In this document: positions 2,016 through 64,000 of the stretch, one piece after another
Position numbering within the stretch: the stretch's first letter is position 1
How the letters are laid out: each line of letters begins with the position of its first letter
Source of the DNA: Candidatus Poribacteria bacterium
GTDB lineage: Bacteria > Poribacteria > WGA-4E > WGA-3G
Reading direction: 5' to 3'
Assembly: GCA_022824835.1 (NCBI GenBank)
Contig: JAJDZB010000029.1
Location: forward strand, 39,999 to 103,998
Length of the DNA: 64,000 nt
Notes under the pieces: model-generated
What the model was told of the DNA's origin: nothing
What the model saw: only the letters and a program-made list of their open reading frames with translations
Database searches by the model: none
Made by a program: the position numbers and the translations under genes

Positions 2016-2759
2016 ATGTTACAGAAGAATTTAGACCTTATTTTTAATTTATTCTTATTGATAGTACTAATTTCTGTTGCGTTCTGGGGTAAATTTGCAG
2101 GTGCAAGGTTAAACCCCCATGAACGTGCAAATCCAACCGCGTCCGGTGCATATTATCGCACACCCGGCAAAAATGGAAAATGGTTTGGTCCCGAAATTAA
2201 CTCGCTCACACTTTGTAAGGACACACACAACGTCTTTAACAATAGAGGCTTTTTTGACATAGTAGAAACGATTGAAAACGCAGTGGTATCTAAGTCTGAT
2301 ATTAGGGGCGCGCTGCACTGGTACAGGCGACAGAAGTGGACATTTGCAGATGACAACACGCCGTGGGGTACAAATGTGTCCATTATCACGTTGCATGACG
2401 ATCTTGGGTGGAGTGAGATAAGTACTGGAGGCGGGACAACCGGTTATCCGTGGAGTGGAATAGAACGGCATTGGCGCGATGGAAATATCATAAGACAACA
2501 AGCAACTGTGATGGGATGGCGACAGTATGCACGCGGGAGAGAACGATGGGTCTGTCCAATGTACTTCAAAATCGGGGGCTGGCAAGGAGAAGACCTTGAA
2601 GTACACTGCCAAACATATAGAACATGGTTCCCACCTGATTGGCAAGAACTGAAACAACGGGATGGCGACTTCGGGTTCCCAGTCGAACGTAAACCCGGGA
2701 TCATCAGCCGCAGAGGAAAACTAACACATAGATGGTATGATTGTATAAAAATCAACTGA
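2016..2759 (+). CDS. Hypothetical membrane-anchored protein.
   Basis: It has an N-terminal hydrophobic segment (IFNLFLLIVLISVAFW). It is W- and G-rich with no recognisable catalytic motifs. Confidence 0.3.
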   Translation: MLQKNLDLIFNLFLLIVLISVAFWGKFAGARLNPHERANPTASGAYYRTPGKNGKWFGPEINSLTLCKDTHNVFNNRGFFDIVETIENAVVSKSDIRGALHWYRRQKWTFADDNTPWGTNVSIITLHDDLGWSEISTGGGTTGYPWSGIERHWRDGNIIRQQATVMGWRQYARGRERWVCPMYFKIGGWQGEDLEVHCQTYRTWFPPDWQELKQRDGDFGFPVERKPGIISRRGKLTHRWYDCIKIN

Positions 2760-2778
2760 ACATCGTTTAGGTATAGAT

Positions 2779-3477
2779 ATGCGAACTATTCTGATCTTAC
2801 TAATCCTCATGTATTTATCCGTTAACAACACCGTTTCCACATCGGCAGATATATGGCACGATGACTTTGATATGGAGAATACCGAAGCATGGAAAAACAT
2901 CGGTGATAGAAGAGTGTGGAAAGTGGTTGATGGCATGTTACGCATTGAAGTCAATAGAGACTGGGCAGTTGGATATGAACTCTATGAACTCATAGCATTT
3001 CCCGGACACCATAGGGATTTTGTCGTTACAATCAAGAATTTTGGGGGTGACAAACTCCGTTTCGGTTTCTGCGTAGGACGACGTTTTCCTGAAACTGCTG
3101 ATGAAGACCCGTTCTATTATGTATTTTTTCCTGATGAAATTAGAGCACGACGTTTCAACGGCAGAGGCACCAGCCATCCTTTTCGGTATAGGTTGTCTCG
3201 TGAACCACGTCAACGTTGGAACACAGACGTTATAGAGGAGATGGAGTTACATTTTAACTCAGGTTTCTTCCTGCTGTTTGTTGATGGGGAATTCCGGACA
3301 AAATTCAAAGATTCAAACTTCAATCGGATAGAGATTCTCGGTTTTGTTGTGGAAGGAATCAACATCGCTAACGTATGGGAAGCTGAAGGTTGGGTTGATT
3401 CGTTCACTATTTCTGGTCTCAACGTCTCAGCAGAAGTTAAGGCAACAGAAACGTGGGCAGAAATAAAAGGGAACTGA
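2779..3477 (+). CDS. Secreted concanavalin A-like (DUF1080/LamG-like) protein, paralog A2.
   Basis: It has a signal peptide. 'IWHDDFDMENTEAWKNIGDRRVWKVVDGMLRIEV' parallels the start of the gene at 1284. The C-terminal KATETWAEIKGN motif is present. Confidence 0.45.
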   Translation: MRTILILLILMYLSVNNTVSTSADIWHDDFDMENTEAWKNIGDRRVWKVVDGMLRIEVNRDWAVGYELYELIAFPGHHRDFVVTIKNFGGDKLRFGFCVGRRFPETADEDPFYYVFFPDEIRARRFNGRGTSHPFRYRLSREPRQRWNTDVIEEMELHFNSGFFLLFVDGEFRTKFKDSNFNRIEILGFVVEGINIANVWEAEGWVDSFTISGLNVSAEVKATETWAEIKGN

Positions 3478-3497
3478 CAACTTTTTCTATAGTTTGG

Positions 3498-4226
3498 CTA
3501 ACGAACACTGCAAATTGCATCAGCACGTAGAATCTCATAATGAGGTAAACACTCAGATAATACACCTTCCAATTCCGTAGGAAAAGGTTCGCTTTTCGGT
3601 TTATACGGAACGAATCCTACGCTCCGATGCACGTTCTCATACCAATGCGGAGCCCAAACACCATCCGAAGGATGTCCACCACGCGTCCAAGACAGCATGT
3701 CTTCCTCAAACGGTATATCCAACTGAGAACAGAGGATTGACAAAACATGCTTCGGATTAAGCAACAATTCCTTTGCATCTAAGATAGGTGGTATCTGTCC
3801 AATCTTCCGTAATTCAGTCAATAGGTCAGCTTGAATCTTCAAACCCGTATCCTTCAAGGTAGGAATCCCAATTACTTTCGTTAATGAAGGAAGCATCTCC
3901 TTCGGATCACGAATGAGTAAGACATTCACAGTCTCCTGCAAGAATGCTCTGTTAATATTAACAAGATGATGTGCCATCATTTTCATGAAAAGCACAGGTT
4001 TAGCACATGCACCTAAAATAACATCCCGAATCACTACATCCACATCCGTTTCCATTGCGGAAATAACTGCATCTCGACCAGGATGCATTGCACCGGTCGT
4101 GTGTAGATAGTGAGCATATAACGGTTCATCAATAACTTCTGTATCACTCCGTTGTGCAAAAGCGTACATCAGAGCGGTCGATATATTCCGTGGTCCTGAC
4201 CAAAGGCACACTCTTTTCGTTTGCAT
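3498..4226 (-). CDS. P-loop sulfotransferase-like family protein.
   Basis: The N-terminal 'LWSGPRNISTALMYAF' resembles the PAPS-binding P-loop of sulfotransferase-family proteins. The assignment is tentative. Confidence 0.3.
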   Translation of the reverse strand: MQTKRVCLWSGPRNISTALMYAFAQRSDTEVIDEPLYAHYLHTTGAMHPGRDAVISAMETDVDVVIRDVILGACAKPVLFMKMMAHHLVNINRAFLQETVNVLLIRDPKEMLPSLTKVIGIPTLKDTGLKIQADLLTELRKIGQIPPILDAKELLLNPKHVLSILCSQLDIPFEEDMLSWTRGGHPSDGVWAPHWYENVHRSVGFVPYKPKSEPFPTELEGVLSECLPHYEILRADAICSVR

Positions 4227-4250
4227 GTGTATCCTCTAAATTTTATCTGA

Positions 4251-4835
4251 TTACCAACGCATTGCCGCTTCTCGGTAGAGTTGTATCTGTTCCATATTGC
4301 GTGGTACTGTTGCTTGTATAGATTTTCGTTTACGATTAAGATCCTTCAAAACTATCGGTGCGCGAAGCATATTCCTAAGTGTAACAATCCCAGACTCATA
4401 ATACACCCACATCCGTTGTTCTGTATAAGGATTGAGCACATACACGGAATTAAGATTCTCCGATTTACCCACGATTTCTGAGAATGAATCGTATTCGGGA
4501 TAGGTAAGTTCAATTGTCTTGTCGTATCCCTCAAGAAACATCTGATCCGGAGGGGGTTTGGGGGAATATCCACTCAATTTACACCTACAAAACTGTATCG
4601 GTGCAGCTGATTTGTTGATCAGATGGAGAGAAACCACAATGGATAAACGATTATTGTCATCACGATTGATAAACCATGTATCCTCCTGAATTAGGTTGAC
4701 CGTCAAACCGGGAATTTGCCTCCATCTGTGATATACGATTGCCAATGCAATCACGCATCCTAATATGAGTATCACCCACTGTCCTGTTGAAGATGCTATG
4801 AACTTTAGGAGTTCTTTAAATATCTGTTGTAACAA
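4251..4835 (-). CDS. Hypothetical membrane-anchored protein, downstream of tsaC in the same orientation.
   Basis: It has an N-terminal TM helix (WVILILGCVIALAIVY). Its start overlaps the end of tsaC. Confidence 0.35.
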   Translation of the reverse strand: MLQQIFKELLKFIASSTGQWVILILGCVIALAIVYHRWRQIPGLTVNLIQEDTWFINRDDNNRLSIVVSLHLINKSAAPIQFCRCKLSGYSPKPPPDQMFLEGYDKTIELTYPEYDSFSEIVGKSENLNSVYVLNPYTEQRMWVYYESGIVTLRNMLRAPIVLKDLNRKRKSIQATVPRNMEQIQLYREAAMRW

Positions 4836-5431
4836 ATCAACTCCTTCTCAAGTGTTTCATCAGAAATTACGCCTTGCCGATGAACAACGGGGGGTGATAT
4901 TGAAATATCGTAAACTGTTGATGGTATAGAGCCTGATGTCTTTCCATCATCAACGATGTAATCTAATCGAGAACTGAGTTCTTCTCCAAATTCCGATGGT
5001 GAGGTGGCTGCTGGTGTTCCTGAAAGATTCGCACTCGTTATTGCAAGGGGACCTCCGAATTCTTGAAGTATGCGTAATAGTAAGGGTTGATCTGGTATGC
5101 GTAATCCCACAGTATTACCGCCTGCTGTCAACTGAGGCAGCAACCCTTTTGCCTCTACAATGATTGTTAATCCACCTGGCCAAAACTTATCTATCAGATG
5201 ATAAAAGAATCCTGGCAAGTTCTGTGCTACCCTTTCTACATCCTCAGTTGAGCCTAAAACTAAGGGGATCGGTTTCTCTTCTGGTCGTCCCTTTACCGTA
5301 TATAGTTTCTGCACTGCCTCTATATTAAATGGATCAGCACCTATACCGTACACTGTATCAGTTGGAACAGCAATAATTCCCCCAGACTTTATACAGTTCA
5401 CAGCTGATTCAATACGTGTGTCACATTCCAC
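4805..5431 (-). CDS. tsaC: L-threonylcarbamoyladenylate synthase (YrdC/Sua5/TsaC family).
   Basis: 'GGIIAVPTDTVYGIGADPFNIEAVQKLYTVKGRPEEKPIPLVLG' is the YrdC-domain signature. Confidence 0.75.
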   Translation of the reverse strand: MECDTRIESAVNCIKSGGIIAVPTDTVYGIGADPFNIEAVQKLYTVKGRPEEKPIPLVLGSTEDVERVAQNLPGFFYHLIDKFWPGGLTIIVEAKGLLPQLTAGGNTVGLRIPDQPLLLRILQEFGGPLAITSANLSGTPAATSPSEFGEELSSRLDYIVDDGKTSGSIPSTVYDISISPPVVHRQGVISDETLEKELICYNRYLKNS

Positions 5432-5445
5432 GACTATTACTCCAG

Positions 5446-6468
5446 TTAGACATCAACTATTGAACCGTTTGCTGCAGCATTGAGAGAGAGCGCATCACGT
5501 TGTCCTTGCTGATATTTTTCATAGGCGATCCCTGCAATCATAGCTCCATTATCCGTACATAAACTAAATGGAGGATAATATACTTCCGCACCAATTTCTT
5601 GTGCATGTTCCTTTAGAGATGACCTTAGTTTACTGTTGGCAGCAACCCCGCCAGTTAGTGTTATCGTATGACAACCAGTATTCTTTGCGGCTTGAACAGT
5701 CTTTGCTACAAGTACGTCAACAACTGCTGCTTGGAAACTTGCAGCAATATCTTCAATGGTAACTTGACCGTTTTCTATTGTGCCCGCGTGTTCTGCCTTT
5801 TCCACGAAGTATCGGACCGAGGTTTTTACCCCACTAAAACTGAATTGATAGTCGCCGCTGCGGAGCATTGGACGGGGAAAGTCAATAGCTGTCGGATCAC
5901 CTTTCTGTGCAAGTTCATCTATGATCTTTCCTCCCGGAAAACCGAGACCGAGATACTTGGCAACTTTATCATAGACTTCACCCGCAGCATCATCTTGTGT
6001 TGTTCCGAGAACCTTATAATTCCATCCTTCATGAACTTCTACGAGCAAGGTATGTCCACCAGATACAGTCAAACAGATATGCGGAAAGGTTAGGTTATCG
6101 TGCACCATGTAATTGGCGTAGATGTGTCCTTCAATGTGATTGATGCCGAGCAGTGGAAGATTGTGACAGTATGCAAGACTTTTAGCTGCAGCCACACCAA
6201 TCAGTAAAGCACCAATCAGACCTGGTCGGTTTGTCACAGCAACCGCATCTATATCATCAAAAGTCGTATCTGCTTCAACGAGTGCTCTGTTGACGATATA
6301 ATTGATTGACTCTATGTGCTTGCGGGATGCCAATTCTGGCACAATACCCCCGTATGCCTCATGTGCTTTTATCTGTGATGCAACGATGTTTGATTGCACA
6401 TCACGACCATCAACTACTATAGCAGCAGCTGTTTCATCACAAGAGGTATCTATTCCGAGTATCTTCAC
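5446..6468 (-). CDS. tsaD: tRNA N6-adenosine threonylcarbamoyltransferase (Kae1/Gcp/TsaD).
   Basis: 'MKILGIDTSCDETAAAIV...' and HIEGH (metal-binding, ASKH-fold) are typical of TsaD. Confidence 0.85.
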   Translation of the reverse strand: MKILGIDTSCDETAAAIVVDGRDVQSNIVASQIKAHEAYGGIVPELASRKHIESINYIVNRALVEADTTFDDIDAVAVTNRPGLIGALLIGVAAAKSLAYCHNLPLLGINHIEGHIYANYMVHDNLTFPHICLTVSGGHTLLVEVHEGWNYKVLGTTQDDAAGEVYDKVAKYLGLGFPGGKIIDELAQKGDPTAIDFPRPMLRSGDYQFSFSGVKTSVRYFVEKAEHAGTIENGQVTIEDIAASFQAAVVDVLVAKTVQAAKNTGCHTITLTGGVAANSKLRSSLKEHAQEIGAEVYYPPFSLCTDNGAMIAGIAYEKYQQGQRDALSLNAAANGSIVDV

Positions 6469-6486
6469 AATGTTATCTTTTAGCTA

Positions 6487-6723
6487 CTACTTACCGTTCT
6501 TTGAAAAGTCAATGTCCTCAAAAGTTTCTGCGGTGAGGACCTGGTCAAATAGTTCATCAAGGTGGTCAAGGTCATCTATAGCAGTAATCGCATTGAGAAC
6601 AGTGTCTGACTTCTCAGCGAACCGATACTGTACTATTTTGATAACGGCTGTCCGTTTCTCGTTGATTCTGCCGCGTTGTAATACGGCTTCGTAAATAGGT
6701 GATTCTTGCATTATTGCCTCCAA
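6487..6723 (-). CDS. Small protein of DUF4351-like character.
   Basis: A 78-aa ORF resembling the C-terminal domain often found in PD-(D/E)XK/Rpn-associated small proteins. The call is weak. Confidence 0.25.
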   Translation of the reverse strand: MEAIMQESPIYEAVLQRGRINEKRTAVIKIVQYRFAEKSDTVLNAITAIDDLDHLDELFDQVLTAETFEDIDFSKNGK

Positions 6724-6983
6724 TTTCCCATCTTCAAAAAGTTCAGATGGATGAATTAAACCCCCAAATACAGAGTAACTTCACCGTGGGTTGCTCAGTG
6801 TTCAGAGAGTCCATCACTATCACCTGTTTTGTTTTCATAGTCGCCGCTGCAAGGTGGTTGGGTGAGTATCCTCCCAAATGTTTGAATAGTTCATCATAAT
6901 GTGTCATGGTAAGTATTATACACTATAATTCAGGAAAATATCAAGGAGATGCGGGTATGTAAAGTTTTTGTCACTCTATTGGT

Positions 6984-7357
6984 CAGAATCGCGGATTACG
7001 CGGAAGGGGTTTCTTGTGCATTTTATGTTTACTTTCACAAGTTGGCGCGGATCTGACTGTTAAGGGGCAAAATATTTACGCGTCCGTTTTTGTACATAGT
7101 ACTCCGCTGGTGTGCAGCCCGTTGACAATCCTATTTCTATCGATATATTGCTCCGCTGGAGCATGGGTTCAGCGATCCTTCTTTCTGTCAATAAACATTC
7201 AATACCTTCACCAAGAAGATACATTCTGTTAGATTGTGCCTTTCTTTGTAGCACATTCTTTCAGAATGTACTTCTTTGTAACTGATCAATTTCATATAAT
7301 GATCCAGAAAATCCTTCCGTGCAAGCTATGTTAACTGGCACGTAATCCGCGATTCAG
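6984..7357. repeat. Pair of 17-bp inverted repeats flanking about 340 bp inside a large non-coding region.
   Basis: cagaatcgcggattacg at 6984-7000 and its near-perfect reverse complement cgtaatccgcgattcag at 7341-7357, with one mismatch. Confidence 0.4.
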
Positions 7358-7564
7358 ACAGATAGAGTGATAAGATATTTACACAACCCAGTTCATCTCA
7401 TCAAGGGATCCTTATCCTTCGAGTTGTCTGAACCTGGATTTACAGGATTAGAGGATTTTCAAGATAAGAGACATCTTCTCGTATTATATTCTACTGAGAA
7501 TGTGAAACCATTTGCGGTTCATTTCATGAAGTGAGTCTTATCCTGAAAATCCTGGTTTAGACAA

Positions 7565-9445
7565 TTATTTCAATATTAACATTTTCCGTGATGCAGTGAA
7601 ATCGCCAGCTTTAAGCGTATAGAAGAAAACACCACTTGCGACAGATTCACCTACTGCGTTTTTGCCATCCCAATATGCAGCACGACTTCTGTTGTGATAA
7701 ACACCTGCAACTTGGTGACCTAACGCCAATGTTCGAATCAATTGCCCATCTGCAGCATAGATGGAGACACTCACTTCTGCAGACTTTGCTAACTGATACG
7801 GTATCCACGTCTCCGGATTAAACGGGTTCGGGTAGTTTGCTAACAGTGCTGTCTCTTGCGGAACGAGGGATGCCAAAAGACGTTCCAAGTTCGCTATACC
7901 TTGTCGGAACACCAAAGAACCGTCGTTTTCAAGCTGCGCAAGTTCTAACCATTTTTTGACGAGTGCTGGGTCAACACCATCTAACTTCACAACACTTTCA
8001 GGTGCAGCAGCATTTGTTGTCTCCCCAAAATGTCCAGCGACAAGCACCAAGTCTAAGATATTGATACTCCCATCAGCATTGACATCTGCGCGTGGGACGG
8101 CTGTGATCGATCCGCCGATGTTTTGTCCCACAAGCACTAAATCCAATATGTTGACGCTACCGTCCTCATTCACATCCCATGCAGGATACGCGGGCTTTGG
8201 CGTAATCATGAGTTCCGCGGGTTCAAGATGTGGTCTCGTAAGCATGCCTTCACTATCGCTGAAGAGGATCTCTGTGATTTTCAAGGTAGTAACTTCTTCA
8301 CTGATTATATCAAACGTAAGTGTCACAAGTGTGCCATCCCCGTTGGTTTCTCCGACAAGGGACGTTGCTGCAACCGTCACAGTGTTTCCTACGATAATCG
8401 GTTGTATTATGTTTGGGTCTGCTGGTAGGAAATCAGCGTTGGCACTTGAAACATAACGGAGCGCGGATTCATCAAACTGTACAGTTGCCTGATAGCCTGA
8501 GATATTCTCTCCACCGGTAACGTTCAGGTTCAGCATAAGTTGCTCGCCGACAACCGGGGATGCCGAGGGGGCGGGAGATAAACTGACCGTAGCATCTACA
8601 AGTGGTATTATGTCTGGTGCTATGCTCAATGCAATACCAACGGGTGTTTGTAATCCTGAGACAATTGTTTCAACGTTTGATCCATCAAGATTCGCACGCT
8701 GAATTGCACCTGGAGAACCACCATGGTCGGGAGAAGTCCAATACATCTTACTATTTTGCAAATCTAATGTGATTCCTCCTGGAAATTGCAAACCGTCTAC
8801 AATGTCCTGTAGGTTTGAACCGTCAAAATTTGCACGTTGGATTTTCCCAGAATTAGGAATTATTTGACTCGTCGTAGATTCATATTGCCAATGGTTTGCC
8901 CAATACATGTGCTGATTCTCAATATCCAAAGAGAGGTAAGCAAGAAAACCCGATACGTTCGCTAAGTCCTCAACGTCAGTTCCATCAAGGTTTGCACGCC
9001 TAATTTTGTTAACGTCAGTCCAATACATCTTACCACCTGACAGATCTAAAGCGAGACCACGCGGAGTCACTAAAGTACTAACAAGCGTTTCAATGTTTGT
9101 ACCGTCCAAATTTGATCTCTGAATCGTATTCTGTCCTCTCTGAGATTCATTCCAATGGATCCAGTACATTTTTCGTGACGATAGGTCTAAAGCCAACGCC
9201 TCTTTAATGCTATCATCACCAGTAACAAGTATTTCAATATTTGATCCGTCAAGGTTTGCACGTCTGATGGAATTATTTCCATTCCAGTCATTCCAATACA
9301 TCTTTCCATTAGAAACATCTAAGGAAATTCCTACTGGTCTACTTAACCCAGTAATAATGTCTTGCACATTTGAACCATCAAGATGAGCGCGTTGGACTTT
9401 TCCAGATAGAAAGTCTGTCCAATACACATACTCAGGTTCTTCCAT
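7565..9445 (-). CDS. Secreted YWTD (LDL-receptor class B) beta-propeller protein with two dockerin-type repeats and a T9SS-type C-terminal sorting domain (FlgD-Ig/Por_Secre_tail-like).
   Basis: It has repeated '...MYW(T/A)D...IRRANLDGSN...' YWTD blades. The dockerin repeats are 'DVNEDGSVNILDLVLVGQ' and 'DVNADGSINILDLVLVAGHFG'. The C-terminus 'NYPNPFNPETWIPYQL...VSIYAADGQLIRTL...AYWDG...ASGVFFYTLKAGDF...KMLILK' matches the T9SS type-A CTD consensus. Confidence 0.6.
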   Translation of the reverse strand: MEEPEYVYWTDFLSGKVQRAHLDGSNVQDIITGLSRPVGISLDVSNGKMYWNDWNGNNSIRRANLDGSNIEILVTGDDSIKEALALDLSSRKMYWIHWNESQRGQNTIQRSNLDGTNIETLVSTLVTPRGLALDLSGGKMYWTDVNKIRRANLDGTDVEDLANVSGFLAYLSLDIENQHMYWANHWQYESTTSQIIPNSGKIQRANFDGSNLQDIVDGLQFPGGITLDLQNSKMYWTSPDHGGSPGAIQRANLDGSNVETIVSGLQTPVGIALSIAPDIIPLVDATVSLSPAPSASPVVGEQLMLNLNVTGGENISGYQATVQFDESALRYVSSANADFLPADPNIIQPIIVGNTVTVAATSLVGETNGDGTLVTLTFDIISEEVTTLKITEILFSDSEGMLTRPHLEPAELMITPKPAYPAWDVNEDGSVNILDLVLVGQNIGGSITAVPRADVNADGSINILDLVLVAGHFGETTNAAAPESVVKLDGVDPALVKKWLELAQLENDGSLVFRQGIANLERLLASLVPQETALLANYPNPFNPETWIPYQLAKSAEVSVSIYAADGQLIRTLALGHQVAGVYHNRSRAAYWDGKNAVGESVASGVFFYTLKAGDFTASRKMLILK

Positions 9446-9486: not shown

Positions 9487-10224
9487 TTAACTAAAATTGT
9501 CAAACGAGACTGTCAAATGCCCTTCATATACTGGTTGACATATTCCAACGTATAAACCGACTTGAAGTGGTTCTTGAAGTGCTATCGTTGTTTCACCCAC
9601 ATGTATCCATTCACCTTCTCCCTCAGATTTATACCATGCGTTGTAGTTATCACCGTCGCGTTGCATTCGCATAGCCATAGGTATATCGCCTTTTGGGGGA
9701 GTATCGACTAAACTAATGGCACCTGATGTGCTAAGTTCTCTCTGTTGCAATGCAAGATCAGTTCGATGACTTTGACCCCACGCTTTCAGTGTCACCCACT
9801 CACCATCCCTTCCATATCTATCTTTTGTCGTTGGCGAAGAGATAACTAATCCAACCACAGAACAAGAATTATCGTGATCGAATACGAATGAGCTCTCAAC
9901 TGTGAACTGATCTTCATTTGTGATCTGGTAAAATCGTGTGGTTGTATCATTTCTCCATAGATCTTGATTTAAACCACCCTCAACCACAAGTTTACCATCT
10001 ATCAACTCATAAGGACTCTTGTCTCCGTTTTGGATATGCCAATACGATTCTAACTCTTGACCATCAAAATCGTCGCTTTGTAGAACCTGATTTTCCTGTG
10101 CTTCAGCATTAGTGTGTATGCCTACTGATAGCACCAATAAAACAATGCCAATTTGACAGATCAGACTCATAATTTGAATCTTGTGTTTCATGTTATACCT
10201 CCAGTTAAAATAGTTATGTATCAA
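9487..10224 (-). CDS. Secreted jelly-roll/concanavalin-like protein.
   Basis: It has a signal peptide and the W/G/D pattern of a beta-sandwich lectin or glycoside-hydrolase-like fold. No catalytic motif is recognised. Confidence 0.3.
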   Translation of the reverse strand: MIHNYFNWRYNMKHKIQIMSLICQIGIVLLVLSVGIHTNAEAQENQVLQSDDFDGQELESYWHIQNGDKSPYELIDGKLVVEGGLNQDLWRNDTTTRFYQITNEDQFTVESSFVFDHDNSCSVVGLVISSPTTKDRYGRDGEWVTLKAWGQSHRTDLALQQRELSTSGAISLVDTPPKGDIPMAMRMQRDGDNYNAWYKSEGEGEWIHVGETTIALQEPLQVGLYVGICQPVYEGHLTVSFDNFS

Positions 10225-10314
10225 CTAATGGATATAGAGAAAATATCAGTATGTTATAATTCAAAAGTTAATGGGATGGACATATTAACCATCCATCCCA
10301 TGTAATATCATGCG

Positions 10315-11988
10315 TTATTCTTGAAGATTATTGCTATCTACAGACCGCATCTCATTTCGCTCTTTTATCATACCCGCAAGAACGCATCCACCCATACCTA
10401 ACAGCACAAGCGCGAAAGGGAAACCTGTTGCAAGTGATGCAGCTTGTAACGCCTTCAACCCTCCTCCGAGTAGCAATGCAATTGCGACTAAACCTTCAGC
10501 AGTACACCAGAAAACCCGTTGTGCAACTGGCGCGTCTACCTTACCACCTGCAGCAATGATGTCTATAATTAGTGAACCCGAATCTGATGAGGTGACAAAA
10601 AAGATGATCGTTAGCAACATAGCGGCACACGAAAGCAGCAATGATACTGGTAATTCTGTAAACATTTTAAAGAGTGCCAGTGGGTAATTATATGCTTCTA
10701 CCTCTTCGGTTACACCTGTGAAATCTCCAGTGAGAAACTGGTGGATAGCAGTACCTCCAAATGCACTAAACCACAATAGACACAATAGGGTCGGTAAAAT
10801 AAGCACAAAGAACACAAACTGACGCACGGTGCGTCCTTTTGAAATCCTTGCGATGAATGTTCCAATAAACGGAGCCCAAGCGATCCACCATGCCCAATAG
10901 AACGTAGTCCAATCGTGCAGAAAACCGGTGTCCTCACGTCCAACCCAGTTACTCAACGGCACAATTTCCTTGAAATAGGTACCAAATCCTGCAAAAATAT
11001 TTTGAAAGATATAACGGGTTGGACCAAGAATGAAAATAGTTACGAGCAAAATAAACGCAAGAATTATGTTGAACTGACTAAGTCGTTTAATGCCAACATT
11101 AATGCCTGTCATCACTGATACAAGAGCGATGGCTGTAATCCCAACAATCAACAGAACCATGGTCACCTCGTGTGCTGGTATCCCAAATAGATAGTTAAGA
11201 CCAGAAGTCACCTGTTCTACTCCTAAGCCAAGGGAAGTTGCGAGTCCAAAGATCCCAGCAAAAATGGCGAATGTATCAATAATGTGTCCGGGCCACCCCC
11301 ATATCCGGTCGCCGAGTATGGGATAAAACGCGGATCTGATAAGTAACGGAAATCCTCTATTATATGCGAAAAACGCCAAGGCAAGTCCGACAACGCCGTA
11401 GATTGCCCACCCATGTAGTCCCCAGTGAAAAACTGTTGTTGCTATACTCAAAGAAGCCGCCGATTTTAATTTGGGATCAGCGATGTCAGGAACAGCTGTA
11501 ACACTGTAATCTGCATTTGCGTCATAAACCGTTTCTCTCCCGAGCGGCGAATACTTCACAGCATCAGTATCCCCTTGAAAATAGGTAATCGGTTCCGACA
11601 CGCCAAAGAAGAGTAGTCCAATACCCACGCCTGCAGCAAAAAGCATCGCAAGCCATGTTAAATTGGAGTACTCAGGTTTTGCATCTGGACCTCCAAGTCG
11701 GATTTTACCAAGAGGGGAGATGGCGACAATTACACAAAAGAGAAATACAAGATTAGCTGTGATCATGAAGAGCCAATCAAGATTTGTGGTAAGCCATACT
11801 CGGGTGCTTTTGAAAAGTTCTGTCGCTTGGTCTTGAAAAATTAGTGAACCAGCTACGAATAATACAATGGTGATACTGGAAATTACGAATACAGGCGTTA
11901 AGTAAATGTCTAACCCGAATAGTTTCTTGTACCTGCCTTCATCTACCTGATGTGGCATCTGTTGCGGCTGTTTTTCTGCTTCGTTCAT
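10315..11988 (-). CDS. BCCT-family (betaine/carnitine/choline) transporter.
   Basis: It has 12 TM helices and the BCCT signature region '[28 protein letters not shown]', plus '[24 protein letters not shown]'. Confidence 0.85.
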   Translation of the reverse strand: [557 protein letters not shown]

Positions 11989-58009: not shown

Positions 58010-60561
58010 TTACCCACTATCAGTTAAGCGTGCTGTTATTTCCAAAAACTCCTGATCGTTGAATACCAATTGAAAAATACCCTTCCATCTGGAACTATCA
58101 CGCACAACCATAGTACCCGCAGCATTAAATGCCCCCTCAAGCGTTTCCAATACTTTACGTTTATATTCGGTATCAAGATTACCACTGAGATGTTGTCCTT
58201 TCGTATCAAAAATCAACACGCGGGTCAAACCGTTTACCTCGTTTGTCATTGCAACGAAATCAGGATAGATTCGTCCCTGTTTCCACCCCTGCAGGTAATA
58301 CTCACCACGTTGGCGTGCTGCCACACGATACCACCATTGCAATGCGCGTTCCTCATCAAGGTAGTAGGCAAATTGCTTTTCCAAATCACTATCAAACTGT
58401 TTCTCAAAAATCGGTTCAAATAGGCTTAATTGCACTGGTTCAAAATTATTCAGAAGTGGTCTATCATTATCAGGATTGACTTGTATCTCATAATTATCTA
58501 CCATCCGATAATTGCGTTCTTGTGTTTCCAAGTCAAAACGGATTTCTCCGTGTTCAAGCTTTCTGCGAAAGATCTCCTCTGCTTGCTTTTCTACTTCAGT
58601 TTTTACATGCTCTCGCAACACATGTGCAAGGTATGAACGTCTATCGTAAATGTCCGCCTCGGTTTCACCGTCTGCAATAAGCCGTTTGCTCATCTCCTGT
58701 GCAATACGTGCTGCTTGCCACAAGTTCGGCACAATATCCGACAAGCGGCGTGCAAAATCAGAAATACTAACCCGCTTTTCAACGTACGGTTCTTGATCAG
58801 TATGGAAAACAAGTAATTCCTCACCCACATCAACCGTAGCAGATTGTCGTCTTACGTTTTGCGGAGCGGATGCATTCGGATCAGGCGGTTCAATTGCTGC
58901 CCAGTCTATACAAGGTAAGATATGCGCCTGATAATTGAGATGAATCCACGCATCGCCATTTTTATGGAGCACAACAGGAAGATAGATATCTTTGCTTCTG
59001 AATTCTTGACGCCGTTTAACTTTTTGAGGTTGTGAACCGTCTTGCTGCGTTGTTCCTGAAGCACTCATGACTTCGTCACTCAAGCCTGTGAGTCCTTCCG
59101 ATTCCAAGCCATGCTTAACTTGTTGGACTACAGTAGCGACATCAGTGTTATTGCAATAGACATAGCATTGGTTCAACGGTTCTCTATCGGTCAGTTGTGC
59201 GTGCGGTTGCCGCATCACGCGCCCGACAAGCTGCGTAATCGCCCTTTGTGCTTGCGTGTTGTCTAACATCACTAACAGATATGCAAACGGACAATCCCAA
59301 CCCTCCATAAGTGCAGATTTTGTGATTATCCACCGCACCTGTGAATACGCTGATAGTAGATCTTCACGTCCGAGTTCATCGTTCTCAGCAGACTTCACAC
59401 GCACTGCATCAGACGGTACATGCAAAGTCTGTGTGAGATATTCGCGGACATCTTCAGCATGAATATGTTTATTATCTCGCTGATCTTTACCCGTTCGCTC
59501 CACACGGACAACAGCAATCGGACGGATATACCGTCCCGTGTTGTTTTCAAGTGCCTTTGCTTCTACATCAAGCCGTTCAAGTTCATCAACTGCTTGACTT
59601 AACGTCAGTTCCCATTCTGCGTTTGGAAATGAAGTTACCTGTACCGGTAACTTTATCATCTCTTCCTTTTTTAAATCAGGACCATCTATATCAACAAGCA
59701 GATTGCTAATGCCGCGGTTCGGTGTTGCGGAGAGTTCAATCACCATGCGTGGGTCAAGTCTACTGATGGATCGTGCAAATTCTTCATTTGCATCACGACT
59801 TCTTGCACCATACGCCTTATGTGCTTCGTCCAAAACAACGATAGGACGTAATATCTTAAACACATTAAAAAGACTCTGTTTGACGTATTTATCTTTCCCT
59901 CCGTTTCCAGATCGGGATATTCGTTTCGCAGACGGGCATCACCGAAGATGTCATCACTGTCAGGGAAAAAACTGTGATATTTCCCTGTATTCCTGAACAT
60001 ACGTAAGAACTCTTTACCTTTTCGTCGATTTGCTGCGGGTAACATCAGCAGCATGACGCACAGATAATTGTTTATATCGTCTCTGCTGAAAGTATCCTCT
60101 TTTTCCAGCATTTTGACGCGCCCGGCAGCTGCCCGTTGCAACATTTTTCGGTAAGGGTGTTCCTTATTCCACAAGGCAGCTTTCGTTTGCGCGTAGATTG
60201 CTTTAGTTGGCACAATCCACAAGACTAAACCTCTTTGCCAAGGGACATGTTCTAATGCAGCGGCAGCGAGTAAGGTTTTACCGCCACCTGTCGGCACTTT
60301 AAAGCAGATATGTGGAATTGGTCGGTTTGCGTCATCGGTGCGGTCTACGTATTCACCTGCAGTTGCTGCAACCTCACCTTTTTCTTTTAACTTTTGCCAA
60401 GCAGATCTCGGATAATTGCGTAACGCCTCGGGAACATCGACTGATGTTTGTTCTAATGCTGCAATCGCAGTTTCTAACTCATGTTGTGTGTTTTCAAGCG
60501 TTTCTAACCAACGGGTGAATGCATCAAGTGCGTTGCGTTGATATACTTTTAATTCCATCAT
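58010..60561 (-). pseudogene. res: Type III restriction enzyme Res subunit (SF2 helicase-nuclease) with its reading frame broken between helicase motifs I and II.
   Basis: ORF 59740-60561 carries motif I 'FKVPTGGGKTLLAAA'. ORF 58010-59863 carries motif II 'VVLDEAHKAY' and motif III 'IELSATP'. Both frames are open over 59740-59943, and the switch is most plausibly at the GGAGGGAAAG run (plus strand 59894-59903). Confidence 0.55.
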
Positions 60562-60626
60562 GATGTTTTACTTTTGGTTTTCGTTTGAATCGTGAATTAT
60601 TGGGATTTTAGGATAAAGAATAAAAG

Positions 60627-60651
60627 AACCCCTACCTTTATGGTAGGGGTG
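60627..60651. repeat. Perfect 9-bp stem hairpin (GGTAGGGG family) between the small basic-protein gene and res.
   Basis: acccctacc-ttta-tggtaggggt, flanked by T-rich sequence on the minus strand. It is either an intrinsic terminator/attenuator or a REP-like unit. Confidence 0.4.
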
Positions 60652-60680
60652 TTGTCAACTATAGTATATTTGAAACTGTC

Positions 60681-60965
60681 CTACTTTTTTTTGGTTTTAA
60701 TTGCATCGGTTGGCACGTCATTGGATCCGAGTGGATGCGATAGACGGTATTTCGCCCCTCGTGCTCTTTGAATAGCACCTCCAGAAGCATCAACAAGTCT
60801 GTAAAAATCTGATAAAAGTTGTGCATCAACTTTGGGATTTTTTTTGATAGTGGCTGCGTCAATATTTCGGTTGATAGTTCTACTCTTTTTAACACTTTGT
60901 TGAGTAGGTTTTTTGGTAGTTGCCTTAACATTTGAAGTGGCCAAAGCGTGGTGTAAGCCCTTCAT
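60681..60965 (-). CDS. Small basic Lys-rich protein.
   Basis: It is 94 aa and ends ...AIKTKKK. An overlapping alternative frame (60659-60931) is also open, so frame and existence are uncertain. Confidence 0.25.
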   Translation of the reverse strand: MKGLHHALATSNVKATTKKPTQQSVKKSRTINRNIDAATIKKNPKVDAQLLSDFYRLVDASGGAIQRARGAKYRLSHPLGSNDVPTDAIKTKKK

Positions 60966-60980
60966 TATTCTTCTCCTTTT

Positions 60981-61844
60981 TTAGAAATATTCTCGCGTAT
61001 GAATAAATAAACTAAGTTCTTCTCTCTGCATATAATCTTTGAGCAATCCTACATAATCATCAAGAGCAGACAAAAGATCTGGATTATTTTCAATTTTTTC
61101 GATTCTTAAACGCAGGTTTTCCGATTTAGAGGTTAGAGTGTCTCTGGTAATCATGCGTCCGTGAGACCGCCATTTTTTATTGTCACTCAGGATTTCAGCA
61201 ATTTCTTCAGCTCTCTCTCGTTTTTTCTTTTTAGGAACAGATTTTCCTGTAGACTTGTCGATCCAATCCTTGAATTTATATTCGGAAAGCCAATTCGTCA
61301 AAAGATCGTGTGATAACTTACGGGCTTGTTCAAACTGGTAGAGTTCACCCGGGTCAAGATTGTTGAGTAGCATGAGTTCCACTGTGTTCAACTGCCCTTT
61401 CTCCGCTTTATCATACAGTCGCTGATATTGGTTCAAATATGACAGAGCGGGGACAAACTTTCCATCCTTCTCAATTTGAGGATCAATAGGTCCTAAGCAT
61501 GAAGAGTCACTCATAAAGATCTGGTCTCCCGCCATCACGAATACTGTGCCTGCGGACATCGCCCTGTCAGGAATAATAAAGAGAACTTCTTTGTAGTGTT
61601 TACGGATAACATGTACCATACGTTCTACTACTTCAACATACCCCCCTGTTGTGTCTAATACAATTGCTATTCTGTCTTTTTGATCTTGGAATAACTTTAT
61701 TGCATTTTTCACTATATTTTCTAAACCGGACCACATTGGACTAAAAATTGTGACAACATCAGCATCAAGAGTTTGTTCAATTTTTTCAAGATATAAGTTC
61801 AGATGTGTTCGTGTATGACGATGAACAGGTCGTAATAACTCCAA
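60981..61844 (-). CDS. ClpP-fold serine peptidase of the SDH (serine dehydrogenase proteinase, PF01972-like) family.
   Basis: 'IAIVLDTTGGYVEVVERMVHVIRKHYKEVLFIIPDRAMSAGTVFVMAGDQIFMSDSSCLGPIDPQI' parallels the SDH consensus (ILHTPGG...VPHYAMSGGTLIALAADEIVM...LGPVDPQL). Confidence 0.55.
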   Translation of the reverse strand: MELLRPVHRHTRTHLNLYLEKIEQTLDADVVTIFSPMWSGLENIVKNAIKLFQDQKDRIAIVLDTTGGYVEVVERMVHVIRKHYKEVLFIIPDRAMSAGTVFVMAGDQIFMSDSSCLGPIDPQIEKDGKFVPALSYLNQYQRLYDKAEKGQLNTVELMLLNNLDPGELYQFEQARKLSHDLLTNWLSEYKFKDWIDKSTGKSVPKKKKRERAEEIAEILSDNKKWRSHGRMITRDTLTSKSENLRLRIEKIENNPDLLSALDDYVGLLKDYMQREELSLFIHTREYF

Positions 61845-61993
61845 AAGTTATTTCCTTGAACTACAATTTTAATTTGCCATTTTTCATATTATACCCTAAA
61901 AAAAATAATTTCACAACAAGAATATCTAAAAGTATAATTTTCAAGTCAAAACTAACTTTTTTGTCATTTCGCTTCTATCATATTGAGGCATTC

Positions 61994-63607
61994 TTACCTT
62001 TCATGCAATGCATCCGGTAGCTGACAAAAAATAATACCCATTCCCGTAAGTTCACGTTGCCCGATGTATTTCCCCGCCGCATACACAATCGCCTTTCTAC
62101 CATTTGCACCGCACGCATCGCGGATACGTTCTGCTCGCTCCAAGTTGAGTACCGCATCATCACTACGTAGATAATCAAGGTCAGGTTTGTAAAGTAGGTA
62201 GTAGTCATATTCGTCATCGTTGTAAAAAAATCCATCGCTGTTCTGTGAATCTAACGTATCCGATCCTATAGCATTCCCAGATTTCGTTAACAATAGATTT
62301 GCGGCAAGGGCAGAGAATTCGGGCAAACCTTCTCCAGTAAGCATCGTTTCAACCTCAATCGGTTTGCCCAAAGTGCAGTAAGTAAAAGAACCGCCTAACC
62401 CTTCGCGCAATGCATCGTCACTGGCATCGGGAACACCGTTGATAACGCGGCGGACACGTTCTGCGGTGATGGTATCTGCATAACCTTCACATTCAATAAG
62501 GATAAATTTACGATTACCACCATCTTCTTTGTTGAGGGAAAGAACAGCGTGTGCTGTTGTTCCACTACCTGCAAAGGAGTCAAGGACAATATCTTCATTC
62601 TTGGTGCAGAGTGAAATCAACTCCTTTATCAGTAATGATGGTTTAGGATAAGGGAATTGGTTTGACCTCATGATGTTTTTTAATTCAATACTTCCATGGG
62701 CAGTAGTTCTAACTATTTCAGAATTCAACATGGATGGGTAGGCTGTATACGTTTCAGTTCCAGCAGGTATAATTCTATATGCCTCAATACGACCATCAGA
62801 GTGTTGTTCAAAAACAACTAAATCATTCTCAATGAGTTGTTGCATTGTAGATTGAGCAACTCTCCAACGACCTTCAGTACCGTCTGGTCTTATAGGAAAT
62901 ATATCACCGAATTCGGATGAGTGAACAGGATAATACATAGTAGGTCTATCTTCTCTCCGATCTCCTTGTCCCCATTGTCTTAATCTCTCTCTTGAGTCTG
63001 TTTCTCTAACTCTCACCTCTTCTCTGAATGCTATTGATGTGATGTCTTTAGCATATACGATTATATGCTCATGAAGTTTTGATGTGTTTCTTGATGTTGC
63101 TCCACGTCCTAACCGCGATCGCCAGACAAATGACTCAATAAAGTTCTGCTCAAAGAATATTTCATCCATCAACATCCGCAAATGATGTACTTCATTATCA
63201 TCAATAGAGATAAAGATTACCCCATCTTCAGCAAGCAATTCTCTTAGTAGGTGCAACCTCGGCCACATCATGCAAAGCCATTTGTCATGTTTCTCAAGGT
63301 CTTCGTTGTCAACGGAGGCATTCTTTGTAAGCCAGTTTTGCATCAGCGGACTGTTCACATTGTCGTTGTATACCCATCCTTCGTTACCAGTGTTGTAGGG
63401 TGGGTCGATGTAAATACACTTGACACGATTTTTATAGCGTGGCAGTAATGCTTTTAAGGCATGCAGGTTGTCGACGTGGATAATTAGGTTGTCGTTTTCA
63501 TCTGTCGGGTTGCAGGATCGGGTTTCGTCTGTTTCAAGGGGGCGGTAGGGTACGGTGAGGTGGTGGGCATAGATGTGTTGTTTTCCTTTGAATTCCAGTG
63601 TGGGCAT
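61994..63607 (-). CDS. mod: N6-adenine DNA methyltransferase, beta-class, Type III Mod-like.
   Basis: Motif IV 'CIYIDPPYNTG' precedes motif I 'VLDSFAGSGTTAHAV' (beta-class order). It is about 537 aa, and a Res-type helicase lies downstream on the same strand. Confidence 0.75.
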   Translation of the reverse strand: MPTLEFKGKQHIYAHHLTVPYRPLETDETRSCNPTDENDNLIIHVDNLHALKALLPRYKNRVKCIYIDPPYNTGNEGWVYNDNVNSPLMQNWLTKNASVDNEDLEKHDKWLCMMWPRLHLLRELLAEDGVIFISIDDNEVHHLRMLMDEIFFEQNFIESFVWRSRLGRGATSRNTSKLHEHIIVYAKDITSIAFREEVRVRETDSRERLRQWGQGDRREDRPTMYYPVHSSEFGDIFPIRPDGTEGRWRVAQSTMQQLIENDLVVFEQHSDGRIEAYRIIPAGTETYTAYPSMLNSEIVRTTAHGSIELKNIMRSNQFPYPKPSLLIKELISLCTKNEDIVLDSFAGSGTTAHAVLSLNKEDGGNRKFILIECEGYADTITAERVRRVINGVPDASDDALREGLGGSFTYCTLGKPIEVETMLTGEGLPEFSALAANLLLTKSGNAIGSDTLDSQNSDGFFYNDDEYDYYLLYKPDLDYLRSDDAVLNLERAERIRDACGANGRKAIVYAAGKYIGQRELTGMGIIFCQLPDALHER

Positions 63608-63638
63608 GGGGGATCCTTTGCAGTGGTAGAATGTATTG

Positions 63639-64000
63639 TTAATAGATCTTGTTCATATCAACATGGAAACCTGCGTTTTTCATTTCTTGTCCGAGCTTTA
63701 GTTTCCAATCTTCACTATCCATAGACACATAGACTACGCCATCAATATCTGAAGGGTTCTCTATCTCTCCTTTAAAGAGCGGACATACTCGTTCTCGTCC
63801 TAAATTTCCCATGAAATAACCGAGTTCAAAGACAACGTTTTGGCGTGCTCTGGGTTTCCTCCCGTCCTCTATCGTATCTTTTAAGGCACCAACATCGTCG
63901 GGTGTAAGCAAGACTATTGCAAAACCTGCATTGTCGGCATATTTTTCAAGTTTCTCAATAATCGTTAGGCCTTCGCTAGGTTGTTCGTGAAGGATGATTG
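63639..64000 (-). CDS. TIR-like domain protein (PF10137/COG4271-like). The 5' end is truncated at the window edge.
   Basis: The frame is open to position 64000: '...IILHEQPSEGLTIIEKLEKYADNAGFAIVLLTPDDVGALKD...PRARQNVVFELGYFMGNLGRERVCPLFKGEIENPSDIDGVVYV'. This matches the hallmark 'AVVLLTPDD...RARQNVIFELGFF...PSDxxGVxY' of the predicted nucleotide-binding TIR-like family. Confidence 0.6.
   Translation of the reverse strand, partial: IILHEQPSEGLTIIEKLEKYADNAGFAIVLLTPDDVGALKDTIEDGRKPRARQNVVFELGYFMGNLGRERVCPLFKGEIENPSDIDGVVYVSMDSEDWKLKLGQEMKNAGFHVDMNKIY

Follow-up and report, generated by a model that had tools for sequence, protein, structure and literature searches.

Canonical Type III restriction-modification (R-M) systems, such as those of the EcoP1I/EcoP15I type, are mod-res operons encoding a beta-class methyltransferase (Mod) and a restriction subunit (Res) that joins an SF2 helicase to a PD-(D/E)xK nuclease. 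Restriction loci may also harbour other genes. Most genes found inside Hma, BREX, DISARM and Type I R-M loci have been described as defence systems in their own right: of nine Hma-embedded candidates tested, seven gave protection against phage, and PrrC occurs almost exclusively in Type I loci (bioRxiv 10.1101/2024.01.29.577857). The locus described here lies on the minus strand of a 64,000-nt stretch from a Candidatus Poribacteria bacterium (contig JAJDZB010000029.1 of assembly GCA_022824835.1), hereafter called the window. It contains the two genes of a Type III system, mod and res, and between them a cassette of two further genes, encoding a ClpP/SppA-fold serine peptidase and a small basic protein. 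An open reading frame (ORF) listing and profile searches (Pfam, PADLOC, PHROG and NCBIfam) were applied to positions 58010-64000, and 94 related loci were fetched for comparison. Where these have to be told apart they carry a label of the form Lnnn, L092 being the locus of a sister strain.

The gene order given in a preliminary description of this DNA was borne out by the ORF listing and the profile matches: a TIR-like gene, mod, a spacer, an SDH-family peptidase gene, a gene for a basic protein of 94 aa, a hairpin and a broken res are all present on the minus strand. From this order, that description had proposed a composite or new defence system that links restriction to a protease/TIR effector. 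Comparison with the related loci corrects this attractive hybrid reading. The block is probably a mosaic of three independent units, in which the inserted cassette would be an autonomous module, either anti-phage, acting by abortive infection or exclusion, or toxin-antitoxin-like. The first unit would be a canonical Type III mod-res operon beside genes for EF-G, alcohol dehydrogenase (ADH) and HtrA; the second, a 1,427-bp autonomous cassette inserted exactly at the junction of mod and res (mod|res); and the third, a TIR gene of the PADLOC type PDC-S35, located in a separate and often rebuilt slot upstream of mod.

Insertion of the cassette at the mod|res junction

The sister-strain locus (L092), which carries a 98% identical Res orthologue, lies at the corresponding place in the chromosome and is followed by genes for EF-G, zinc-ADH and HtrA. 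Only 9 nt separate its mod (537 aa) from its res (850 aa), and no peptidase, small-protein or TIR gene was found at this locus. In blastn comparisons, homology between the window and the sister strain extended over positions 63619-61995 (94.6% nucleotide identity) and 60567-52000 (96.1%), and the 1,427 bp between these two blocks (60568-61994) were missing from the sister strain. The absence of this segment between closely similar flanks indicates a clean insertion at the res start codon. The insert has a GC content of 36.7%, as against 43.0% for mod and 44.5% for res, and is homologous along its full length in five relatives (L002-L006). No transposase or integrase was found within it.

At the left edge of the insert (61963-61981), a degenerate copy of the res 5′ end could be recognized (ATGATAGAAGCGAAATGAC, compared with ATGATGGAATTAAAAGT in res), which was also visible in the alignment with the relatives. 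The copy is clearer in L004, where it reads ATGATGGGAATGAAATTA, compared with ATGATGGAATTRAAAGT in res. The presence of this copy at the edge of the insert places the entry of the cassette at the start codon of res, the insertion point being marked by a short direct repeat or target duplication. In another relative (L093, Res 81% identical) mod and res are adjacent, 46 nt apart. In a third relative, a Poribacteria locus with 79% identical Res, the same junction is occupied by a different pair, a HicB-like antitoxin-fold protein of 157 aa and a protein of 131 aa (L094, 4924-5821), indicating that small two-gene cassettes have repeatedly entered this R-M family between mod and res, an insertion hot spot that is here documented at base-pair resolution. 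In L002 (7325-9822), a DDE transposase (insertion sequence) has in turn interrupted the mod gene that precedes the cassette.

The peptidase gene is preceded by an AT-rich spacer of 149 bp (61845-61993; GC 0.34 in the 500-bp composition window 61500-61999). This spacer contains a sigma-70-like candidate promoter, TTGTGA-17-TATAAT, at 61888-61916, with 10 of 12 consensus matches, and upstream of it a second element, TTGACT (61949-61921). Downstream of the small gene, a hairpin resembling an intrinsic terminator was found at 60628-60650, with a 9-bp stem including 6 GC pairs, a loop of 5 and a T-rich tail. Both elements recur in relatives: the candidate promoter block is kept with the cassette in L001, L003, L004 and L007, and the hairpin is kept in L004 (CCCCTACCCAAAAGGGTAGGGG, followed by a T-run). 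L001 has no mod any more and only fragments of res, yet its peptidase and small genes are intact and the promoter-like block is kept. Synonymous divergence (dS) between the window and L004 was 0.43 for the peptidase gene and 0.18 for the small gene, compared with 0.81-0.96 for res and 1.29 for mod; the lower dS of the cassette relative to its flanks indicates that it was exchanged between lineages more recently than the flanking R-M genes. The ratios of nonsynonymous to synonymous divergence (dN/dS) were 0.11-0.16 for the peptidase gene and 0.29-0.54 for the small gene, indicating purifying selection on both. Together, these data suggest a self-contained cassette with its own predicted promoter and terminator, which appears to move alone between genomes and between R-M alleles that had already diverged. 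An earlier suggestion of an abortive-infection-type module nested in an R-M operon therefore holds for the nesting, in view of the predicted promoter and terminator, the foreign base composition and the independent spread; its abortive-infection function remains a candidate one.

The peptidase and its small partner

The peptidase gene (60981-61844, minus strand) encodes a protein of 287 aa that matched PF01972 with E = 7.5e-15 and 55.1 bits, above the gathering score of 31.3, the match covering only positions 83-175 of the 286 profile positions. With the NCBIfam model NF047768 (Clp_like_SDH) it scored 68.6 bits, far under the cut-off of 250, and a homologue from an E. coli prophage likewise scored only 54.5 bits. 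A match restricted to the PF01972 core and a score this far below the Clp_like_SDH cut-off indicate that the protein belongs to a divergent SDH-like subfamily. A search of PDB sequences with the peptidase profile yielded only marginal matches to ClpP and NfeD (E ~0.3) and no close relative.

The AlphaFold2 (AF2) model of the peptidase had a mean confidence (pLDDT) of 86.9 and a pTM of 0.85. Foldseek placed it closest to B. subtilis SppA, the NfeD 1510-N protease and ClpP (probability 1.0; 3rst, 4kwb, 3bpp and ClpP), at TM scores of 0.45-0.58 and sequence identities of 11-21%. The protein thus has a ClpP/crotonase-like fold with a conserved candidate nucleophile, Ser97 (AMSAGT), which sits in the same AxSxG-type turn as the serine of these proteases. 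Ser97, Asp121 (GPIDPQ, at the place of IHQP in ClpP) and His228 were invariant in 21 homologues. The window protein differs from ClpP in that the canonical histidine position reads IDPQ and the invariant His228 lies in the C-terminal part; it also has an additional C-terminal helical domain, and neither a membrane segment nor a stomatin partner. Because the three residues are invariant, the ClpP/SppA fold is modelled with confidence and dN/dS is low, the protein is probably active as a serine peptidase.

The small gene (60681-60965, minus strand) encodes the basic protein of 94 aa, which had no match in Pfam, PADLOC, PHROG or NCBIfam. It was recognized by its constant site directly downstream of the peptidase gene and by a hidden Markov model (HMM) of its own family. 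Members of this family are 56-120 aa long and are encoded on the same strand as the peptidase, at an intergenic distance of typically -26 to +36 nt. They share a core motif consisting of NPK[IV]D, a helix and then G-x(3-4)-[KR]-[PG]-x-[FY]-x-L-x-x-P-L-G, a pattern also visible in the partners from E. coli, Rhizobium and Methylosinus. Of the 84 loci with enough sequence beyond the peptidase gene, 82 gave a match there to the family HMM, which was built from the family's own proteins. More than 2,300 relatives of the peptidase were present in the databases, and a scan with one genome per species gave 80 loci from at least 15 phyla, with Candidatus Poribacteria leading. The conserved unit is accordingly the pair of peptidase and small protein, and not its R-M context.

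These data define a widespread and strictly paired module, recognizable by the signature NPKxD...KPxFxLxxPLG in a partner of 56-120 aa, that lacks both a mechanistic description and a PADLOC model. The literature search found no paper describing a cassette of this peptidase and small protein. The literature matches for 'DUF114' that were checked proved false, deriving from DUF1149 and DUF1145. A possible mode of action can be proposed. The small protein may keep the peptidase inactive, or may be its processed substrate, through the conserved KPxFxLxxPLG segment; infection, or the loss of a labile partner, would then release the protease, which would cut a target of the host or of the phage.

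Genomic contexts and function of the pair

The order mod-peptidase-small gene-res was found by tblastn and ORF clustering in L002-L006 only, a shallow clade of Poribacteria in which the peptidase is at least 87% identical; in L007, mod and the peptidase gene were seen before the contig ended. In about 12 further Poribacteria loci the pair is divergent from a gene for a Type III-like Mod of ~980 aa (PADLOC PDLC03632, E = 1e-172), with a ResIII helicase of ~990 aa further along. The pair adjoins Type I HsdM or HsdR in five loci (L009, L011, L053, L055 and L058), is embedded between HmaA and HmaB in four (L038, L052, L076 and L078, at ~10,000-11,200 in each) and lies beside HmaB in two more (L029 and L063). 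The Hma-linked loci derive from Alpha- and Gammaproteobacteria and often also contain a HEC-01A-like ABC ATPase. Among 90 large neighbours in the loci outside Poribacteria, the list of Pfam families was headed by ResIII, DEAD, SWI2_SNF2, HSDR_N, GmrSD_N, DUF1156 and SIR2_2.

The pair was also found on mobile elements. On a Rhizobium plasmid it adjoins a multiubiquitin/ThiF/MBL cluster, on a Methylosinus plasmid it lies beside a Fic gene, and homologues of ~30% identity occupy accessory slots of Gordonia phage BeeGee and of a Shewanella Mu-like phage. Ubiquitin-like conjugation clusters (E2/ThiF/JAB or multiubiquitin/ThiF, with an MBL-fold hydrolase) were observed more than once beside the cassette or its host R-M system, namely at ~2,300-8,000 in the Poribacteria loci L002, L004 and L006 and at 4045-6551 in the Rhizobium plasmid locus L089. 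In two different lambdoid prophages of E. coli, the pair lies directly downstream of a cI-like repressor of the LexA family, on the same strand, and in one of them beside hicAB. This version consists of an SDH-family peptidase of 300 aa, 47% identical to the window peptidase, and a partner of 56 aa (L088, 6812-7885; L091, 5001-6074), and 17 of 5,426 complete E. coli genomes carry it. In L088 the two proteins are RefSeq WP_021518647.1 and WP_167851737.1. In phage lambda, the position directly after cI is occupied by rexAB. The E. coli pair therefore resembles RexAB and other immunity-region morons of prophages by gene position alone, and has no sequence relationship to RexA or RexB. Its occurrence in the rexAB slot means that a function in defence, as a toxin-antitoxin or as a guard, is directly testable in a model organism.

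The pair is thus nested in Type III loci (the window and L002-L006) and in Hma loci (L038, L052, L076 and L078), and is non-embedded in many others. In being self-contained, nested in a restriction system and also found outside such systems, it resembles the guilt-by-embedding cassettes (Payne et al. 2024; PADLOC HEC/PDC). The loci mined in that study were of the Hma, BREX, DISARM and Type I R-M kinds and did not include Type III mod|res junctions, so the present locus adds Type III systems to the published idea; and the pair differs from those candidates in lacking a model in PADLOC v2.0.0. The classic embedded gene is that of PrrC in Type Ic hsd loci; in contrast to PrrC, no dependence of the cassette on its host R-M system was indicated.

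Several observations weigh against a stand-alone anti-phage or toxin-antitoxin-like module. Neither the peptidase nor the small protein had a match in PADLOC v2 (v2.0.0), and no defence-specific HMM supports an anti-phage role. A DNA methyltransferase was present within 7 kb in 32 of 85 loci, many of which represent one syntenic Poribacteria arrangement, and most immediate neighbours in the loci outside Poribacteria were ordinary metabolic genes. Defence-island enrichment of the pair would therefore seem real but partial, and its association with restriction recurrent but not obligate. The role of the small protein as an inhibitor or substrate is conjectural. The relatives that bear the cassette keep res intact and under purifying selection, so some functional interplay with the R-M system is possible. 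Lastly, PF01972 was presumably once named SDH_sah, whence a link to FS_HP_SDH_sah may exist; the latter is said to go back to Fillol-Salom et al. 2022, Cell 185:3248. If this identity is right, a validated relative exists. The pair, a PF01972 (SDH) peptidase with an unannotated partner that is carried on mobile elements, would be compatible in architecture with FS_HP_SDH_sah, a DefenseFinder label for a hypothetical protein plus an SDH_sah-domain protein, of which the name alone was confirmed (PMC13532340). As a difference, the PF01972 profile is matched by the window peptidase over its core only.

The cassette lies within or beside restriction systems of four methylation-dependent kinds, and at least six of these contexts are independent. 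This recurrent nesting, together with the frequency of ResIII, HSDR_N, DUF1156 and GmrSD_N among the neighbouring Pfam families, could also be explained by a mobile cassette that works through the host restriction complex. As a dedicated companion of methylation-dependent restriction, it might be a guard that senses anti-restriction proteins and is triggered when Res, HsdR or HmaA is disabled, or a portable alleviation protease that tunes the nuclease subunit by degrading Res or HsdR. Both roles have precedents: PrrC, associated with EcoprrI, senses anti-restriction proteins and triggers abortive infection, and ClpXP acts on HsdR of EcoKI in restriction alleviation. Such a role would explain the independent capture of the cassette inside Type III, Type I and Hma operons. 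It is nevertheless unlikely, as a methyltransferase is absent from the surrounding 7 kb in over half of the loci, the rexAB slot of the prophages has no R-M system nearby, the cassette is intact in L001 after loss of mod and fragmentation of res, and embedding is common to unrelated defence cassettes in general.

An equally improbable explanation is that of a pure addiction module of the toxin-antitoxin type without a role in defence, a selfish stabilizer landing in accessory regions. This would agree with the two-gene structure and the small, closely linked partner, the occurrence on plasmids and prophages, the HicB-like pair at the same junction in L094 and the retention of the cassette where the R-M system decays. 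The position in the rexAB slot and the nesting in defence systems, however, favour a defence phenotype, and toxin-antitoxin function and abortive infection are not mutually exclusive.

The slot upstream of mod and the host restriction genes

Only the C-terminal 119 aa of the TIR-like protein are encoded in the window (63639..>64000, minus strand). This fragment matched PF10137 (E = 9e-31) and PADLOC PDC-S35 (E = 4.6e-57), the latter over profile positions 162-277 of 278, i.e. nearly end to end over the part present, with ~150 N-terminal residues lying beyond the window. PDC-S35 is a PADLOC candidate that derives from genes lying inside loci of the BREX, DISARM and Type I R-M kinds (bioRxiv 10.1101/2024.01.29.577857), and is a single-gene defence candidate only. 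With the NCBIfam Cap12 model, the fragment reached 41 bits compared with a cut-off of 450, and so falls outside the equivalogs of the CBASS Cap12/Pycsar TIR proteins (PF10137). No nucleotide cyclase was found in the window; the downstream gene is mod, and the sequence upstream of the TIR gene lies outside the window.

Homology between the window and the sister strain begins at 63619, 12 nt upstream of the mod start codon. In every relative, the slot upstream of mod differs, containing ApeA/HEPN, an E2-ThiF-JAB plus MBL cluster, PIN, or AF2212-like plus PIN. In the sister strain, the first 46-55 codons of mod recur as two further remnants upstream of the real mod (L092, 1485-1622 and 3272-3436), and L001 contains a fusion between remnants of the mod 5′ end and of the small gene (6023-6434). 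These additional 5′ remnants suggest that the slot has been rebuilt repeatedly by recombination at the 5′ end of mod. The TIR gene is best described as a separate candidate defence tenant of this variable slot.

Joint action of Mod, Res, peptidase, small protein and TIR protein, with restriction coupled to a protease/TIR effector, is thereby made very unlikely. The five genes are co-oriented and closely packed, and the mod-cassette-res order is kept in L002-L006 with res intact. Against this, both the cassette and the TIR gene are missing beside mod and res of the sister strain, tblastn with the TIR fragment gave no match in any of the 94 related loci, and the upstream neighbour differs from one relative to the next. 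The cassette moreover has its own predicted promoter and terminator and a discordant dS, and in L001 it outlived the decay of the R-M system. The linkage of the peptidase with mod and res proposed in the preliminary description is limited to the shallow Poribacteria clade, and distant homologues occur in many unrelated contexts. On the neighbourhoods, the sister strain and the absence of the TIR gene, the composite system fails under the refuting conditions that this description had itself set. A prophage remnant, with the peptidase as a leftover head-maturation (prohead) protease, as weak matches to phrog_53 (E = 3e-9) and NCBIfam Clp_rel_HeadMat (E = 1e-8) might suggest, was rejected on context and is effectively excluded by the anatomy of the locus, since the best PHROG match is phrog_11747 (function not assigned; E = 8e-54) and not a head-maturation family, the 1.4-kb insert has no other phage genes, the phage homologues lie in accessory slots outside head modules, and neither the obligate small partner nor the stand-alone predicted promoter and terminator fits.

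The R-M genes into which the presumably autonomous cassette was inserted resemble the canonical Type III systems in their domains and in their strong PADLOC matches. The mod gene (61994-63607, minus strand) is intact and encodes an N6-adenine DNA methyltransferase of 537 aa (PF01555, E = 4e-36; PADLOC MTase_III, E = 4e-159). Its motifs are in the beta-class order, IYIDPPYNTG before DSFAGSGTT, and the protein is 96.8% identical to Mod of the sister strain, with a dN/dS of 0.065. In the cassette-bearing relatives L003 and L004, amino acid identity was only 63-66% for Mod compared with 78-84% for Res, which is consistent with an exchanged target-recognition domain and a different methylation specificity. 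The locus departs from the canonical operons in two respects: mod and res are not adjacent but 1.4 kb apart, separated by the 1,427-bp insert with a predicted promoter and terminator, and res is frameshifted by 1 nt.

The res gene (58010-60561, minus strand) would encode a protein of ~850 aa when intact, combining a Type III SF2 helicase with a PD-(D/E)xK nuclease. It is split by a 1-nt deletion into two ORFs, 59740-60561 (273 aa) and 58010-59863 (617 aa), which matched positions 1-218 and 256-847 of one and the same PADLOC REase_III profile (PDLC03653; E = 6e-51 and 5e-123). The motifs GGGKT, DEAH and YPDF...FDTKG were all found, but not on one intact polypeptide, as the frame is broken between helicase motifs I (GGGKT) and II (DEAH). 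A search with the C-terminal Res fragment yielded intact orthologues, P0121 (98% identical) and P0122 (96%). The only length difference from res of the sister strain is the loss of one A in a short run (A4 to A3, at 59894-59896), by which GGGAAAAG of the intact orthologue became GGGAAAG (59893-59899). Both halves of res had a dN/dS of 0.04-0.06 relative to the sister strain, and this low ratio together with a lone homopolymer indel gives no sign of res decay. The frameshift is therefore one of three things: a very recent single-base change in a homopolymer, heterogeneity within the population, or an assembly error. The broken frame had been taken as a possible sign that the system is being remodelled or inactivated; the break itself is present, and in view of the single indel and the low dN/dS it does not appear to be evidence of remodelling. 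A phase-variable simple-sequence repeat as the cause of the break was also considered and rejected, the tract being merely A3/A4. In the upstream frame, GGGAAAG reads G_GGA_AAG, which has the form of a -1 slippery heptamer. A -1 slip at 59893-59899 would give back full-length Res, reading ETEGK/DKYVKQSLFN compared with ETEGKGRYVKQSLFN in the sister strain, and the heptamer could be either a coincidence or a low-level expression switch.

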